Source of the DNA: Candidatus Woesearchaeota archaeon
GTDB lineage: Archaea; Nanobdellota; Nanobdellia; SCGC-AAA011-G17; UBA489
Direction of reading: 5' to 3'
Assembly: GCA_964367375.1 (NCBI GenBank)
Contig: CAYIXG010000001.1
Span: forward strand, 3,905-67,904
DNA length: 64,000 nt
The position numbers and the translations under genes were made by a program. The notes under the pieces are model-generated. The model had not been told where the DNA came from, did not search any database, and saw only the letters and a list, made by a program, of their open reading frames with translations. Shown here one piece after another: positions 4,808 to 59,472 of this stretch. The stretch's first letter is position 1, and the number at the start of each line of letters is the position of its first letter.

Positions 4808-5701
4808 TTAAACAGATATTTTCATGAAGTCGTCAGCAGCAATGGTGTGCGGGAATATGGCTGTCGCTTCTGCAAGGAGCTCATCAACGTTTTTGTATCT
4901 CTGGCTAAAGTGGGTTAAGATGAGTTTTTTTGCCTTTGCTTTTTTTGCAATGGTTGCTGCTTGCGCTGCAGTTAAATGCTTGTATTCCTCTGCTTTCTCT
5001 GTGAGCGCTGAGGAGAACGTTGAATCTGCAACAAGGATGTCTGCTTCTTTCGCTGCTTTTGCAATGTTTGCGCAGATGTTTGTATCCAGGATAAACACGA
5101 TTTTCTTTCCTTTTTGAAGAAAGGTTACTTGGTGAGGGGTAATCTTTTTGCCTTTGAAGGTGATAGGTTTTCCCTCTTGGAGTGTGCCAAGAATTGGCCC
5201 TTGAGGAATGCCAATTTTCTTCACATAATCTATGTTTATTTTTCGTTTGTCATGTTCGAGGAAGGTGTATGCAATGCAGGGGATGCTGTGATTGAGGGCG
5301 TGTGCAAGTAAGGAGTAATCTTTGCCAGTGTAAAAAATGCCGTCCTTTGTAATTTCATGTACCTTAATGGGAATTCTTCGCTCTAAAGTGAAGATGGTAA
5401 GGAGTTGAGCAAGTCGTGCCTTTGTTCCTTTTGGTCCGAAGAGTTCAAGTGTTCCGTGGTAGTTGTTCTTTGCAAGGTTCTCAATAAGCCCTGGCAAGCC
5501 AAAGTAATGGTCGCCATGCCAGTGTGTAAGGAGAATTTTGGTGATTTTGGGCGGGGGAAACCCTGCAATGCGCAGTTGCCGCTGCGTGCCTTCGCCGCAG
5601 TCAATAAGAAGGTGTTCATTGGTGTGACTAAGCAAAATGCCGCTGTGGTTGCGGGTTGCCGTTGGCACCATGCTTCCAGTGCCGAGAAAGAGGATTTCCA
5701 T
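4808..5701 (-). CDS. rnz: Ribonuclease Z (tRNA 3'-processing endonuclease, metallo-beta-lactamase fold)
   Basis: MEILFLGTGS...THWHGDHYFGLPGL (HxHxDH), ~297 aa. Start placed at the ATG at 5701 rather than the upstream extension of the six-frame ORF. Confidence 0.8.
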   Translation of the reverse strand: MEILFLGTGSMVPTATRNHSGILLSHTNEHLLIDCGEGTQRQLRIAGFPPPKITKILLTHWHGDHYFGLPGLIENLAKNNYHGTLELFGPKGTKARLAQLLTIFTLERRIPIKVHEITKDGIFYTGKDYSLLAHALNHSIPCIAYTFLEHDKRKINIDYVKKIGIPQGPILGTLQEGKPITFKGKKITPHQVTFLQKGKKIVFILDTNICANIAKAAKEADILVADSTFSSALTEKAEEYKHLTAAQAATIAKKAKAKKLILTHFSQRYKNVDELLAEATAIFPHTIAADDFMKISV

Positions 5702-5734
5702 GGTTTTGTGCAGGGAAACGTTTTTAAATAATTT

Positions 5735-6292
5735 GTGCTTTGCAGGAGGATGTCTGACACAGAAGGAAACCTGGAAAAAGTGAAAGGCACCTTTGCACAG
5801 GGAAGAGTTGTTGCCGAGCACAGAGGTGCGGCAAAGGCGTTGCATACGAAGAGTAGGTTTGGTGAGGTGAAGGATGATAAGGTGAATTATTCATTCATTG
5901 AAGCGTTCTATTTGTTTGAGCAGAATAAGTTGGAAATAAAGGAGGGGAGGAAGAAAGTAACAAAAAAGCAGCTGTTGCAGAGGGCAGAGCAGAAAGAGAA
6001 GAATTTTTGGGTGAGGTATTGCGTCTTTCGCGAGTTGCGGTCTCGCGGCTATATTGTAAAGACAGCGTTAAAGTTCGGTGCAGATTTTCGGGTGTATGAT
6101 AAGGGTGTGAAGCCGGGTGAGGATCATGCGCGGTGGATTGTGTTTCCAGTAAAAGAATCAGAAACATTGACGTGGTATGAGTTGAGCGCGAAGAATCGGG
6201 TTGCGCATTCAACAAGAAAGCACCTTTTAATTGGTGTTGTTGATGAAGAGGATGATGTGACATTTTACGAATCACAGTGGATTCGTCCGTAG
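5735..6292 (+). CDS. endA: tRNA-splicing endonuclease EndA
   Basis: C-terminal catalytic domain KFGADFRVYDKG...HARWIVFPV and NRVAHSTRKHLLIGVVD (conserved Tyr/His/Lys triad region). Size matches the homotetrameric archaeal type; the true start may be the ATG at 5750. Confidence 0.75.
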   Translation: MLCRRMSDTEGNLEKVKGTFAQGRVVAEHRGAAKALHTKSRFGEVKDDKVNYSFIEAFYLFEQNKLEIKEGRKKVTKKQLLQRAEQKEKNFWVRYCVFRELRSRGYIVKTALKFGADFRVYDKGVKPGEDHARWIVFPVKESETLTWYELSAKNRVAHSTRKHLLIGVVDEEDDVTFYESQWIRP

Positions 6293-8837: not shown

Positions 8838-8848
8838 CGTTTTTAAAG
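8838..8848 (+). promoter_or_regulatory. TATA-like box upstream of the tRNA-Asn / tRNA pair
   Basis: GTTTTTAAAGA, ~28 nt upstream of the tRNA 5' end at 8874. Confidence 0.3.
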
Positions 8849-8873
8849 AAACCTCGCTGTTTTTTGATGCAGT

Positions 8874-8960
8874 GCCTCGGTAGCTCAGCTCGGTAGAGCA
8901 CGTGGCTGTTATAAACCAGCAGATACCACGCGGTCGAAGGTTCAAATCCTTCCTGAGGCG
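8874..8960 (+). tRNA. tRNA-Asn(GUU) with a 13-nt canonical anticodon-loop intron
   Basis: GCCTCGG-TA-GCTC-AGCTCGGTA-GAGC-A-CGTGG-CTGTTA[t aaaccagcagat]a-CCACG-CGGTC-GAAGG-TTCAAAT-CCTTC-CTGAGGC-G. All stems pair; the mature molecule would be 74 nt. Confidence 0.7.
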
Positions 8961-8963
8961 GAT

Positions 8964-9100
8964 GGGCCGGTAGCTCAGCCTGGCTGGAGCACAGGAATGA
9001 AAATTGAAATTCCGCTCTATCGACTGATAGCATCAGGTCAGGCATCGAGAGTATCAACAGATACCGATAAAGGTCGGAGGTTCAAATCCTCTCCGGCCCA
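8964..9100 (+). tRNA. Intron-containing tRNA gene, isotype unresolved (137 nt; ~62 nt of intervening sequence)
   Basis: Perfect acceptor stem GGGCCGG/CCGGCCC+A, canonical D arm TAGCTCAGCCTGGCTGGAGC, and T arm GGAGG-TTCAAAT-CCTCT. The 84 nt between them cannot be folded by eye into one anticodon arm plus a single 37/38 intron. The gene sits 3 nt after tRNA-Asn. Confidence 0.5.
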
Positions 9101-9103
9101 CTC

Positions 9104-9111
9104 TTTTTTTT
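9104..9111 (+). terminator. Oligo-T (T8) archaeal terminator after the tRNA pair
   Basis: CTCTTTTTTTTAG immediately downstream of the tRNA 3' end. Confidence 0.4.
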
Positions 9112-9222
9112 AGAAAAATTCTACAGCCTACAGGATCATAAATAAACAGTGTTTGATTAATAATAAGGAAGAAGAAATAAGTAAATAGCATATAAAAATG
9201 AGGAATCTTTTTAAAGAGGATC

Positions 9223-9894
9223 ATGAATCTCAAGATAAAGGCGGGGATGATGCACATACAGCTTCATGATAAGAGGAATAATATCATCGCAGTCATTGTA
9301 TTAGTCATGCTTTTTATTGGTGCAATTGTACTTCTAATACAGTTTGGTCCTGAAGTTGCAAACATTCAAGGAGGGAAAAGAGAAGGATATACTGAACTGA
9401 CTGAGATAGATATGAGAGTAGTAAATGAGTTGCATGCAAATGAGCTCACAATACTCGGAATAAAACTAGGTGATACGGCAGAGGACGTGAAGAAGAGGAA
9501 AGGTAATCCGGATAAGATAGGGCAGAAGAATGATGGTTCTGAAAGATGGGAGTTTGGAGCAAGCATAGGCCTTGAAAAAACAGGGATGATACTTACTGTA
9601 AAGGATGGAAAAGTTGCAAGAATCATGCTTCTTCCATCGTTCAACAAGCTATTGAAAGGTGATCCCCTTCTGGGAGTGATGACAAAGAATGAAATGTATG
9701 CATGGCTGGGTGCTCCGGAAGAATTCTTTTTTCGGCAGGTGTCATCTTCAAGCGCGCGTGTGTATCGAGAATATCAGTATCAAGAAAAAGGATTCATTAT
9801 TAATATTTTGAGTGGTGATGTGGTAAGCGTTGGATTCACTTCTTACTTTGACGGGAAATCAGATTTAACGAGTGGTGTGCAGGTTACTTCGTAG
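9223..9894 (+). CDS. Hypothetical membrane-anchored protein
   Basis: 223 aa with one N-terminal TM helix (IIAVIVLVMLFIGAIVLLI) and a hydrophilic C-terminal domain. Confidence 0.35.
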   Translation: MNLKIKAGMMHIQLHDKRNNIIAVIVLVMLFIGAIVLLIQFGPEVANIQGGKREGYTELTEIDMRVVNELHANELTILGIKLGDTAEDVKKRKGNPDKIGQKNDGSERWEFGASIGLEKTGMILTVKDGKVARIMLLPSFNKLLKGDPLLGVMTKNEMYAWLGAPEEFFFRQVSSSSARVYREYQYQEKGFIINILSGDVVSVGFTSYFDGKSDLTSGVQVTS

Positions 9895-11374
9895 AAGATG
9901 CATGCTTTGGAAATAAATTTTCTACTGTACAAATGGGTTTTCCTGTGGGAAGGAGGCCAAATTTCACATCGTCATAATTGCCGCATCCAATAGCAAGGAA
10001 GGTGTTGATTTTGCCACTTGTTTCGGGAATAAAAGGGCTTAAGAGAATGCCAATGATTCTGATGGCATCAAGCACATTATACAAGACTTCATTCCGGTCT
10101 TTCGCGTTTTCCCAGGGTTTTCGTTCGTTGATATATTTATTTACCTCATGCACAAAATCCCAGATGGTTGCGAGCGCGTGGTGAAGTTCATATATTTTCA
10201 TGTGCTTCTCTATTTTTTTCAAGTTTAGTTTTTCAACCAGTTCGCCATCCGGCTCTCCTTCAGGAATTTTTCCTTGGCAATGCTTCACGACAAGGGATTG
10301 TGTTCTGCTAATCAAATTTCCTAAGTCGTTTGCAAGCTCGTTGTTCAATCTGTTTTTCAGTGCCTCTTCGTTGAAGTCGCCATCTTCATGAACAGGTATT
10401 TCTCGAATGAGGAAATAGCGGAGTGCATCGCTTCCATAGGTGTGGATGAGTGGAAAAGGGTCAATGCTTGTGCCTGTCGATTTTGAAACTTTTTTTCCAT
10501 TGACAGTTAAGTATCCATGAACAAGGATGGTTTTTGGAGGTTGAGCGTCAATGCCTAATAAAATTGCTGGCCAAATGACTGAATGGAACCAGTTGATGCC
10601 TTTTCCAATAACCTGGATGTTTGCAGGCCAGTATTTTTTGTATGCGTCACCATCAGGATATCCGAGAGCAGTGATATAATTGCTTAACGCATCGATCCAG
10701 ACGTAAATAGTATGTGTTTCATCTCCAGGCACTGGAATTCCCCATTGTGCATGCATTCTACTGACACACAAATCTTTCAATCCTTCAGTTTGCAAACGTT
10801 GCAGCATCTCTTTTCGTTTTCCTTCTGGAAAGACAAATTGTTTTGATTCAAGCAATGCATGTATCTTACTCTCATACTTGCTCATCTTGAAGAAATAGCT
10901 TTCTTGCTCAATCCATTCTGGTACTTTGTCATGCTCAGGACATTTTTTATTGACAAGGTCTTTTTCAGTGATATATGCCTCGCAGCCAGTGCAGTAGTAT
11001 CCTTTGTAGACTCCCTTGTAAATGTCTCCTTTGGAAAGAAGAGTGGTAAATATAGCTTGTGCGATTTTCACGTGCCTTTTTTCAGTTGTTTTAATAAAAT
11101 CATCATGAGAAATATGAAGCTCGGTGCAAAGCTGTTGAAAGATTTTTGAGTTTTGATTGACAAATGCTTGAGTAGGAATGCTAGCTGCTTGCGCTGCTTG
11201 CTCATTCTTTTGAGCATTCTCATCTGTGCCTGTGAGGAAGAAAACATCATCTCCCTTCAGGCGGTGCCATCGTGCAAGAACGTCTGCAATAACCTTCTCA
11301 TAGGCATGTCCAATATGGGGGCGAGCATTCACGTAGTCAATTGCTGTGGTGATATAGAAGGTTTTTGAAGGCAT
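9884..11374 (-). CDS. metG: Methionyl-tRNA synthetase
   Basis: Class I aaRS motifs HIGH (PHIGHAYE) and KMSKS (KVSKSTG), a connective peptide with CxxC, and a MetRS-specific anticodon-binding helical domain. Confidence 0.9.
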   Translation of the reverse strand: MPSKTFYITTAIDYVNARPHIGHAYEKVIADVLARWHRLKGDDVFFLTGTDENAQKNEQAAQAASIPTQAFVNQNSKIFQQLCTELHISHDDFIKTTEKRHVKIAQAIFTTLLSKGDIYKGVYKGYYCTGCEAYITEKDLVNKKCPEHDKVPEWIEQESYFFKMSKYESKIHALLESKQFVFPEGKRKEMLQRLQTEGLKDLCVSRMHAQWGIPVPGDETHTIYVWIDALSNYITALGYPDGDAYKKYWPANIQVIGKGINWFHSVIWPAILLGIDAQPPKTILVHGYLTVNGKKVSKSTGTSIDPFPLIHTYGSDALRYFLIREIPVHEDGDFNEEALKNRLNNELANDLGNLISRTQSLVVKHCQGKIPEGEPDGELVEKLNLKKIEKHMKIYELHHALATIWDFVHEVNKYINERKPWENAKDRNEVLYNVLDAIRIIGILLSPFIPETSGKINTFLAIGCGNYDDVKFGLLPTGKPICTVENLFPKHASSTK

Positions 11375-14984: not shown

Positions 14985-15086
14985 TAGCCCCGGGAGGATT
15001 TGAACCTCCGTCAGCGGAGCCAGAGTCCGCTATCCTTGGTCCATTAACCGTTTGGAGCTAATGTTAGACCGCTAGACTACGGGGCT
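14985..15086 (-). tRNA. tRNA-Gln(CUG) with a probable ~29-nt non-canonical intron in the D-loop
   Basis: Revcomp AGCCCCG-TA-GTCT-[agcggtctaacattagctccaaacggttaatggaccaa]-GGAT-A-GCGGA-CTCTGGC-TCCGC-TGAC-GGAGG-TTCAAAT-CCTCC-CGGGGCT-A. A1:U72 with A73 (the archaeal Gln signature), a perfect anticodon arm, and the extra sequence located between the D-stem halves. Confidence 0.5.
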
Positions 15087-59397: not shown

Positions 59398-59472
59398 TGC
59401 CTTGGGGCGGATTTGAACCGCCGACCCTCGCCTTATGAAAGCGATGCTCCAGCCAGGCTGAGCTACCAAGGC
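59398..59472 (-). tRNA. tRNA-Met(CAU), elongator type
   Basis: Revcomp GCCTTGG-TA-GCTC-AGCCTGGCTG-GAGC-A-TCGCT-TTCATAA-GGCGA-GGGTC-GGCGG-TTCAAAT-CCGCC-CCAAGGC-A; G1:C72. Confidence 0.75.

Follow-up and report, generated by a model that had tools for sequence, protein, structure and literature searches.

A tRNA-Ile(GAU) gene with three predicted protein-spliced introns in a groundwater DPANN archaeon

The stretch of DNA analyzed here, a window of 64 kb of genome whose positions serve as coordinates throughout, carries on its (+) strand a tRNA gene of 137 nt at 8964-9100. Sequence comparison and in silico splicing indicate that this gene very likely encodes the tRNA-Ile(GAU) of a groundwater DPANN (Woesearchaeota/Nanoarchaeota-like) archaeon and that it is interrupted by three protein-spliced introns, at positions 27/28, 37/38 and 43/44. 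A preliminary description of the stretch had given the exact coordinates of the gene, its place 3 nt past a tRNA-Asn gene and its approximately 62 nt of extra sequence, and had put first, among several readings, multiple introns framed by bulge-helix-bulge (BHB) motifs at non-canonical positions, as in Thermoproteales or DPANN. It is this last reading that the present analysis supports.

The acceptor stem of the gene (GGGCCGG/CCGGCCC) is a perfect 7-bp helix followed by discriminator A, and the D-arm (GCTC-AGCCTGGCTG-GAGC) and the T-arm (GGAGG-TTCAAAT-CCTCT) are canonical, all of which had been read correctly at the outset, as had the identity of the D-arm (TAGCTCAGCCTGGCTGGAGCA) with that of the tRNA-Met gene at 59398-59472. 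A26 and the variable loop AGGTC are separated by 79 nt rather than the expected 17, which makes 62 nt of extra sequence, and no contiguous 5-bp anticodon stem is found in the unspliced gene, in agreement with the early remark that none is continuous with the flanking arms. All removals of up to three segments from these 79 nt were enumerated, subject to the remaining anticodon arm having 17 nt, U33 and a purine in position 37; the arm CTCGA-CTGATAA-TCGAG, obtained by removing segments of 27, 14 and 21 nt, was among the solutions with five paired stem positions. A BHB rule was then applied, in which a central helix of 4 bp is bounded at each end by a 3-nt bulge, the two bulges being on opposite strands, and the cut falls behind the second base of each bulge; its register was checked against PMC4090602 and on the intron of the neighbouring tRNA-Asn gene. 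When this rule was enforced, reading the gene with three introns was the single top solution, with the maximum cloverleaf score of 24 (7 + 4 + 5 + 5 paired stem positions, U33 and A37). The resulting parts of the gene are as follows.

8964-9100, (+): tRNA-Ile gene, 137 nt, matched by the Rfam tRNA model at exactly these ends
8964-8992, (+): exon 1, 29 nt, with the acceptor 5' strand, D-arm, A26 and C27; GGGCCGGTAGCTCAGCCTGGCTGGAGCAC
8993-9019, (+): intron 1, 27 nt, at position 27/28; AGGAATGAAAATTGAAATTCCGCTCTA
9020-9029, (+): exon 2, 10 nt, positions 28-37, TCGA CTGATA, with the rest of the anticodon-stem 5' strand, anticodon GAT and A37
9030-9043, (+): intron 2, 14 nt, at the canonical position 37/38; GCATCAGGTCAGGC
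9044-9049, (+): exon 3, 6 nt, positions 38-43, A TCGAG, with A38 and the anticodon-stem 3' strand
9050-9070, (+): intron 3, 21 nt, at position 43/44; AGTATCAACAGATACCGATAA
9071-9100, (+): exon 4, 30 nt, with the variable loop AGGTC, T-arm, acceptor 3' strand and discriminator A73; CCA is not encoded

Splicing these parts in silico gives a 75-nt product with fully paired stems of 7, 4, 5 and 5 bp, the loop CTGATAA, U33 and A37. The four exons are collinear within the 137 nt, the gene being neither split nor permuted. ARAGORN identifies the spliced 75-mer as tRNA-Ile(gat); the same program is silent on the unspliced gene in its default run and returns tRNA-Phe(GAA) in its intron mode. The anticodon arm and variable loop are the same as those of two intronless genes from relatives (L017 and L074, loci introduced below), both tRNA-Ile(gat) in ARAGORN.

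Each of the three introns is framed by a BHB motif whose central helix has all four pairs. The helix of intron 1 is GAGC(22-25)/GCTC, with bulges AC|A and TA|T, an inner helix GGAAT/ATTCC of 5 bp and an outer helix of 2 bp (G-C and U.G), which brings it close to the strict form. Intron 2 has the helix CTGA(32-35)/TCAG and bulges TA|G and GC|A; its outer helix is the anticodon stem itself, with 4 bp (5 once intron 1 is removed), and its inner helix is 1 bp. For intron 3, the helix is ATCG(38-41)/CGAT and the bulges are AG|A and AA|A, with an inner hairpin GTATC-AACA-GATAC of 5 bp and an outer helix of 1 bp, giving a relaxed HBh'-type motif. Strict (hBHBh') and relaxed (HBh'/hBH) forms are both accepted (PMC4090602). 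The three internal hairpins that had been pointed out in the insert are all present in the sequence: GGAAT/ATTCC is the inner helix of intron 1 and (G)TATC-AACA-GATA(C) that of intron 3, and CTATC-GACT-GATAG, which spans the border of intron 1 and exon 2 and the anticodon, has no place in the final model. The heptamer CTGATAG, marked earlier as resembling an anticodon loop, does hold the anticodon GAT, and its last base becomes A upon splicing. The likeness of CAACAGATA|CC to the junction of the tRNA-Asn intron proved coincidental, as the real 3' site of intron 3 lies 8 nt further on, at CGAT-AA|A. When CAACAGAT|A-CCGAT was tried by hand as a canonical 3' junction like that of tRNA-Asn, three of the five anticodon-stem pairs formed and the variable loop had 7 nt.

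Only a few of the 98 BHB candidates have flanking helices as long as 4-5 bp, and the three chosen introns (5, 4 and 5 bp) belong to them. As a control, the middle 79 nt were shuffled 300 times with dinucleotide composition preserved; one shuffle reached a perfect cloverleaf through BHB-framed introns, and none of the 300 did so with comparable flanking helices. Single- and two-intron solutions reach 21/24 at best, with mismatched anticodon stems. A single long intron is what ARAGORN proposes when introns are allowed, as a tRNA-Phe(GAA) with a 41-nt intron, and the heptamer TTGAAAT had likewise been marked in the preliminary description as a possible anticodon loop (GAA). That model, however, has two mismatches in the 5-bp anticodon stem, a 26-nt unpaired variable loop and a 96-nt product, its intron has no BHB framing, and no single-intron solution exceeds 21/24. 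The heptamer itself sits in the loop of intron 1, and the comparative data set the anticodon arm as CTCGA-CTGATAA-TCGAG. We give the single long intron next to no weight.

The comparison loci, designated by L-numbers, are syntenic loci of relatives anchored on the methionyl-tRNA synthetase (MetRS) gene, together with metagenome contigs. In the MetRS-anchored loci, a tRNA-Ile(GAU) gene occupies the same place, after tRNA-Asn and beside MetRS, and the Asn-Ile tandem is also found in L012, L013, L074, L002, L028 and L033. The gene is intronless in L013, L074, L017 and L002, where ARAGORN calls each one, and lies directly after tRNA-Asn in L013, L074 and L002. One canonical intron is present in L037 and one intron 5' of the anticodon in L038, two introns are found in L028 (30/31 and 37/38) and in L005 (27/28 and 37/38), and three in L003 and L011 (30/31, 37/38 and 43/44 in each), in L042 (27/28, 37/38 and 45/46) and in L012 (30/31, 37/38 and 45/46), the 45/46 sites of the last two having been resolved by hand. 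Removal of the three introns from the L011 gene in silico yields the sequence of the intronless L074 gene without a single difference, which validates the splice-site rule on an independent pair.

A search of metagenome contigs, in which hits had to match the anticodon, the sequence of exon 3 and the 3' terminus of intron 3, recovered 22 loci representing 18 unique genes. Ten of these unique genes have the layout of the window (27/28, 37/38 and 43/44), seven have 30/31, 37/38 and 43/44, and one has 37/38 and 43/44 only. Five scan loci come from the aquifer sample of the window itself, among them L109, which has the T-arm of the window gene, and L106, from a different sample, has a recognizably homologous intron 1, aGGAATTctaAATTCCGCTCag. 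A perfect cloverleaf results from in silico splicing of every one of the 28 unique family members parsed, and the anticodon arm is the same throughout, apart from CCCGA/TCGGG in L012. The automatic BHB solver missed L003, L005, L012, L035, L042 and L065, which have 3/4 central-helix pairs or very long introns; most of these were settled through the exon-pattern parse and by hand, with L035 and L038 outside the parsed set. Overall, the family has 0, 1, 2 or 3 introns at five sites (27/28, 30/31, 37/38, 43/44 and 45/46) in a tRNA that is otherwise almost invariant.

The position and architecture of intron 1 recur in 12 other unique genes. Within the 27/28 class, its central-helix pairs are retained in 11-13 of 13 genes, and the first three pairs of its inner helix are retained in 12/13, 9/11 and 10/10, with four to five pair types each. 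Intron 3 is common to L003 and L011, which were found independently through MetRS synteny, and to 17 unique metagenomic genes; pair 1 of its inner helix is retained in 20/20 cases with 3 pair types, and pair 2 in 19/20 with 5 types. The covarying helices, together with a layout kept in ten other unique genes, point to purifying selection on splicing.

These comparisons also bear on the possibility that only introns 1 and 2 are excised and that the 21-nt segment stays in the tRNA as a class II-like long variable arm with the stem GTATC/GATAC. The segment does form a 5-bp hairpin right after position 43, about where such an arm sits, yet 11 unpaired bases, CGATAAAGGTC, would trail the hairpin, unlike class II variable arms, and a perfect ATCG/CGAT helix and correctly registered 3-nt bulges frame the segment. 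Orthologues with the same exon sequence have no such segment (L028, L037, L005, L065 and the intronless genes), and in two lineages the third intron is instead at 45/46 (L012 and L042, by hand). tRNA-Ile is, moreover, a class I tRNA, and a long variable arm is considered very improbable here.

A decaying pseudogene or tRNA-like remnant, with the functional tRNA-Ile(GAU) gene elsewhere in the genome, would suit a view limited to 64 kb and an Rfam score of only 35.6 bits for the unspliced gene. It is hard to reconcile with the perfect stems of the spliced product, with three perfect BHB motifs, with a locus that is the syntenic place of the tRNA-Ile(GAU) gene in relatives, with ten other unique genes that share the three-intron layout and covarying helices, and with the TATA promoter-like element and oligo-T terminator that flank the Asn-Ile pair. 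The degenerate element that had been entertained at first is likewise at odds with a perfect spliced product conserved across many genomes, and such a remnant is judged most unlikely. The gene and its flanks are also identical across three independent assemblies of one groundwater sample (Hainich H51, 0.1-um), to whose metagenome exact protein matches assign the locus; therefore, the structure is not an assembly artefact.

Besides its BHB motif, intron 2 of the tRNA-Ile(GAU) gene has a second set of potential pairing partners. Its 3' part, AGGTCAGGC (within 9030-9043), is complementary to the D-loop region GCCTGGCT (8978-8985), and in the minimum-free-energy fold of the window gene this pairing forms an 8-bp helix, GCCUGGCU/AGGUCAGGC. 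Complementarity of the canonical 37/38 intron to the D-arm 5' strand and D-loop is seen across the tRNA-Ile family (also in L003, L011, L028, L037, L042 and L091-L112). Relative to shuffled introns, the mean z is -2.06, 18 of the 24 unique genes fall under -1.64, and for other tRNA segments z is near 0, the expected anticodon loop excepted. In the same loci, the 17 canonical introns that belong to other tRNAs have a mean z of +0.13, and D-arm complementarity is unseen in 15 of them. The sub-segments that pair vary between genes, and cognate pairs of intron 2 and D-arm are modestly better than non-cognate ones, with 120 of 5000 permutations as good (p ~0.024).

This complementarity of 8-9 nt to the D-loop is superficially guide-like and could be taken to favour an embedded box C/D guide RNA, as in the euryarchaeal tRNA-Trp intron, a reading raised in the preliminary description. 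In box C/D guide RNAs, C (RUGAUGA) and D (CUGA) boxes, plus C'/D' boxes, flank guides of 10-12 nt. In 8964-9100, there is no C box, C' box or TGATGA, the sole CUGA is that of the anticodon loop, introns of 14-27 nt are too short for a C/D RNA, and an Rfam search with a limit as loose as E = 10 brings up no small-RNA family. More generally, no box C/D RNA, group I intron or other Rfam family reaches its gathering score, and the few sub-threshold matches appear chance-like (E <= 1 for the window, <= 10 for 8850-9130). An embedded guide RNA is regarded as a negligible prospect.

For the three-intron tRNA-Ile precursor, the following pathway is proposed. The tRNA would be transcribed jointly with the upstream tRNA-Asn, 3 nt away, and RNase P and RNase Z would trim the transcript ends. 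Each intron would fold with its flanking exon bases into a bulge-helix-bulge, EndA (5750-6292) would cut past the second base of every 3-nt bulge, and an RtcB-type ligase would join exons of 29, 10, 6 and 30 nt into the 75-nt tRNA, to which CCA would be added later. In archaeal tRNA splicing, cleavage leaves 2',3'-cyclic phosphate and 5'-OH ends, and the exons are joined by RtcB. At the tRNA-Ile locus, cleavage, ligation, CCA addition, co-transcription and splicing order are predictions made from the gene.

The D-stem 3' strand (GAGC) is taken up by the helix of intron 1, bases 38-41 of the anticodon arm (ATCG) by that of intron 3, and the anticodon stem serves as the outer helix of intron 2; therefore, the three BHB motifs cannot share one fold with the cloverleaf. 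Such incompatibility has already been described for crenarchaeal multi-intron tRNAs (PMC8450103). For the window precursor, the best fold with the motifs of introns 1 and 3 enforced has -52.2 kcal/mol, compared with -48.6 kcal/mol when the cloverleaf and the intron 2 motif are enforced and an unconstrained minimum of -54.6 kcal/mol. Across the family, the mean pairing probabilities in the primary transcript are 0.53 for the intron 1 helix and 0.57 for the intron 3 helix, and 0.05, 0.08 and 0.01 for the D stem, the anticodon stem and the intron 2 helix, respectively; with introns 1 and 3 removed, the latter three become 0.06, 0.44 and 0.14. On these models, it is with moderate confidence that we propose removal of introns 1 and 3 first and of intron 2 last. 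The helix between intron 2 and the D-arm would prevent the D stem from closing and would hide the motif of intron 2, and it would thereby free GAGC (22-25) and ATCG (38-41) for the two non-canonical BHB motifs. A simple thermodynamic switch was considered and is not fully supported, as the D-arm helix persists in the window gene and the anticodon stem of the family rises only to P = 0.44.

Two candidate processing enzymes are encoded in the window upstream of the tRNA pair.

5750-6292, (+): EndA tRNA-splicing endonuclease, 180 aa from ATG; Pfam PF01974 (2e-28) and PF02778 (2e-12)
4808-5701, (-): RNase Z-like metallo-beta-lactamase; Pfam Lactamase_B_2 and Lactamase_B above cutoff; adjoins EndA

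The EndA gene lies 2.7 kb upstream of the tRNA-Ile gene, and the best solved relative of its product is the Nanoarchaeum equitans alpha subunit 3iey_A (3e-36). Against the enzyme 1a79 of M. jannaschii, the alignment is near full-length, without long gaps and with the N-terminal domain included. The catalytic Tyr and His are spaced by 9 residues (YDKGVKPGEDH) as in M. jannaschii, whereas N. equitans has six more (kkGkrse); thus the window enzyme has no Lys-rich insertion between these two residues, and it has no N-terminal loop insertion relative to M. jannaschii either. The same spacing, again with no N-terminal loop insertion, is found in 119 of the 120 closest EndA homologues, from Woesearchaeota/Nanoarchaeota. 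An identical EndA protein is on record from a contig of 216 kb. Insertion loops with a conserved lysine (L1/CSL and L2/ASL in the N-terminal domain, L3 between Tyr and His) mark broad-specificity EndA, and cleavage of relaxed motifs has been tied to such insertions (PMC5829648). No EndA paralogue or beta subunit was found in the window by tblastn, and no EndA gene was found on the metagenomic contigs with three-intron tRNA-Ile genes, so that no link of EndA type to intron content can be drawn from them. The RNase Z-like protein scores 26.2 bits against the tRNase Z model PF13691, just under the cutoff of 27, and its gene probably starts at the methionine of MEILFLG; it may be a tRNA 3'-end processing enzyme that would free tRNA-Asn from the 3-nt spacer. 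A Pfam scan of 27 proteins encoded in the window revealed no RtcB.

Several points weigh against the assignment of three introns to the tRNA-Ile gene or against parts of it. The splicing itself is a prediction from gene sequence, and an intact second tRNA-Ile(GAU) gene is possible beyond the 64 kb in view. The motif of intron 3 is relaxed, its outer helix being only 1 bp, and in the metagenomic set the central helix and bulges of this intron were fixed by the search pattern, which leaves the window, L003 and L011 as the independent cases. The neighbouring EndA has none of the insertions linked to cutting relaxed motifs, yet intron 3 as read from the gene is such a motif, which implies either a second subunit outside the window or a failure of the loop-insertion rule here. 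Finally, in the window precursor from which introns 1 and 3 have been removed in silico, pairing of intron 2 with the D-arm has -40.3 kcal/mol, against -32.5 kcal/mol for the canonical precursor. As this pairing is still favoured after removal of introns 1 and 3, the splicing order is not forced by thermodynamics alone.

A wider proposal joins two of these side observations, namely that intron 2 is a built-in refolding element that orders splicing (1 and 3, then 2) and that a large loop-less Woesearchaeota/Nanoarchaeota clade of EndA cuts relaxed non-canonical motifs. That both parts hold jointly seems rather doubtful to us, and the proposal is put forward tentatively. If true, processing of relaxed motifs by the loop-less clade would contradict the current loop-insertion rule, and if both observations hold, they would bear on precursor folding for ordered splicing and on the substrate range of EndA.

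The remaining features of the locus are listed below.

8840-8847, (+): candidate archaeal TATA-like box, TTTTTAAA, ~27-34 nt upstream of tRNA-Asn, identified by eye from the sequence
8874-8960, (+): tRNA-Asn(GTT), Rfam tRNA 58 bits, the upstream member of the conserved Asn-Ile tandem
8912-8924, (+): tRNA-Asn intron, 13 nt, canonical 37/38, TAAACCAGCAGAT; BHB by hand with helix CTGT/GCAG and bulges TA|T and AT|A
8961-8963, (+): spacer GAT between tRNA-Asn and tRNA-Ile, 3 nt
9104-9111, (+): T8 run just past the tRNA-Ile gene, likely an archaeal oligo-T terminator, identified by eye from the sequence

Because the TATA-like TTTTTAAA at 8840-8847 and the T8 run at 9104-9111 enclose the two tRNA genes, co-transcription of tRNA-Asn and tRNA-Ile is suggested, for which the box would serve as promoter. 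In gene content the window is ordinary core chromosome, with TFIIB, a ribosomal-protein/SecY operon, primase and several aminoacyl-tRNA synthetases; for MetRS, at 9884-11374, the nearest relatives, with <=64% identity, come from metagenome-assembled genomes of Woesearchaeota/Nanoarchaeota. EndA, the RNase Z-like gene, the tRNA-Asn/tRNA-Ile pair and MetRS all lie within ~6.5 kb (4808-6292 and 8874-11374), and the order EndA ... tRNA-Asn, tRNA-Ile, MetRS is preserved in L002. On contigs L081, L082, L084 and L085, gene calls place a same-strand gene, rather than the RNase Z-like gene, immediately 5' of an identical EndA, which may be either a real rearrangement or a gene-calling difference. The tRNA-Gln(CTG) gene at 14985-15059 (-) has an Rfam tRNA score of only 31.1 bits, close to the gathering score of 29 and far below the 54-66 bits of the other intronless tRNAs of the window. 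Beyond the ten tRNAs of the window, a permissive Rfam scan and a custom acceptor/T-arm scan revealed no hidden tRNAs.

Further unusual tRNA genes are present in the comparison loci. The tRNA-Ile genes at L005 8118-8290 (-) and L065 7040-7210 (-), which belong to different genomes, both have canonical introns of 75 nt with a conserved core, GGAGGTGAG ... AAGAGC-N-ATGCTCT hairpin, and their 5' introns differ in position (27/28 and 30/31, respectively). An Rfam scan of the L005 gene gave no family besides tRNA, and the shared core may be a conserved intron-borne RNA element. Over-long tRNA candidates were found at L042 9566-9716 (-), 151 nt, tRNA-Asn-like with insertions in the D-loop and elsewhere; at L041 506-674 (-), 169 nt; at L080 6801-6939 (-), a 139-nt tRNA-Asn with a ~53-nt intron; and at L010 10833-10941 (-), 109 nt. 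These candidates suggest that multi-intron or long-intron tRNAs are common in related DPANN.

Detection of genes of this kind by standard tools is poor. The Rfam tRNA model does match 8964-9100, at 35.6 bits against a gathering score of 29, with the anticodon arm bypassed as a 79-nt local insertion, so that the refuting outcome named in the preliminary description, a covariance-model search with no hit, did not occur. The model weakly detects both of the intron-bearing tRNA-Ile genes scanned (the window gene and that of L005). ARAGORN in its default mode leaves the window gene unreported, and it called none of the intron-bearing tRNA-Ile(GAU) genes checked in the window and six relatives. Run without intron handling, ARAGORN labels tRNA-Gln and tRNA-Asn genes with canonical introns as 'tRNA-Phe' (L037 7110-7195 and L002 10900-10986) and the window tRNA-Asn (8873-8961) as 'tRNA-???' with a 4-base anticodon. 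An automated inventory of the tRNAs in such genomes will have both wrong isotypes and gaps. As finders miss or weakly detect intron-bearing tRNA-Ile(GAU), genomes of these ultrasmall archaea will seem to be without an essential tRNA, and the apparent loss distorts completeness estimates and claims of reduced translation machinery. At the same time, a tRNA-Ile(GAU) family with 0-3 introns makes it possible to follow, in a clean natural series, how tRNA introns are gained and lost outside Thermoproteales. The phenomenon itself is known; what the window gene adds is a clean case from a widespread family that finders systematically miss.

One of the closest known parallels is found in Thermoproteales, in which tRNA genes with up to three BHB introns are documented (PMC4090602, PMC8450103); in Pyrobaculum, for example, 25/26, 37/38 and 56/57 are the intron positions of tRNA-Pro(UGG) (Sugahara et al. 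2007/2008, summarised in PMC4090602, PMC8450103). As in those genes, the tRNA-Ile gene has three BHB-framed introns, one canonical and two non-canonical, with motifs that overlap mature stems, and it is missed by standard finders. Unlike those genes, its host is a mesophilic groundwater DPANN archaeon rather than a hyperthermophilic crenarchaeon, its introns at 27/28 and 43/44 flank the anticodon stem symmetrically, and the EndA of the window has no crenarchaeal-type loop. Common non-canonical sites include 20/21, 22/23, 25/26, 29/30, 30/31, 45/46, 53/54, 56/57, 59/60 and 3/4, among others (PMC4090602); 27/28 and 43/44 are not in this list, which is open-ended, so that earlier reports are possible. 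With respect to canonical 37/38 introns, such as that of tRNA-Asn (8874-8960), intron 2 is alike in that it pairs with bases 32-35 and its bulges hold 36-37 and 38, whereas in the tRNA-Ile family it is, unlike other canonical introns, also complementary to the 5' half of the D-arm.

Within DPANN, multi-intron tRNAs were mapped by Kaneta et al. 2018 in Woesearchaeota, Pacearchaeota and others, and the incomplete tRNA sets of new DPANN genomes were taken there to imply undetected disrupted tRNA genes (PMC5829648). The tRNA-Ile gene of the window is one case of the hidden disrupted genes anticipated in that study (PMC5829648). Kaneta et al. also reported that tRNA disruption in DPANN goes with an EndA bearing a C-terminal 'L3' lysine-rich insertion (PMC5829648), in contrast to the window EndA and 119/120 of its closest homologues, which have no L3 insertion. 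The disrupted tRNAs of other DPANN archaea, including the split tRNAs of Nanoarchaeum and the non-canonical introns of ARMAN-2, belong to the same superphylum and the same general phenomenon, although the tRNA-Ile gene, unlike the Nanoarchaeum split tRNAs, is contiguous and collinear. The three-intron tRNA-Ile(GAU) is therefore an instance of a phenomenon known in archaea, in a gene that is itself new.

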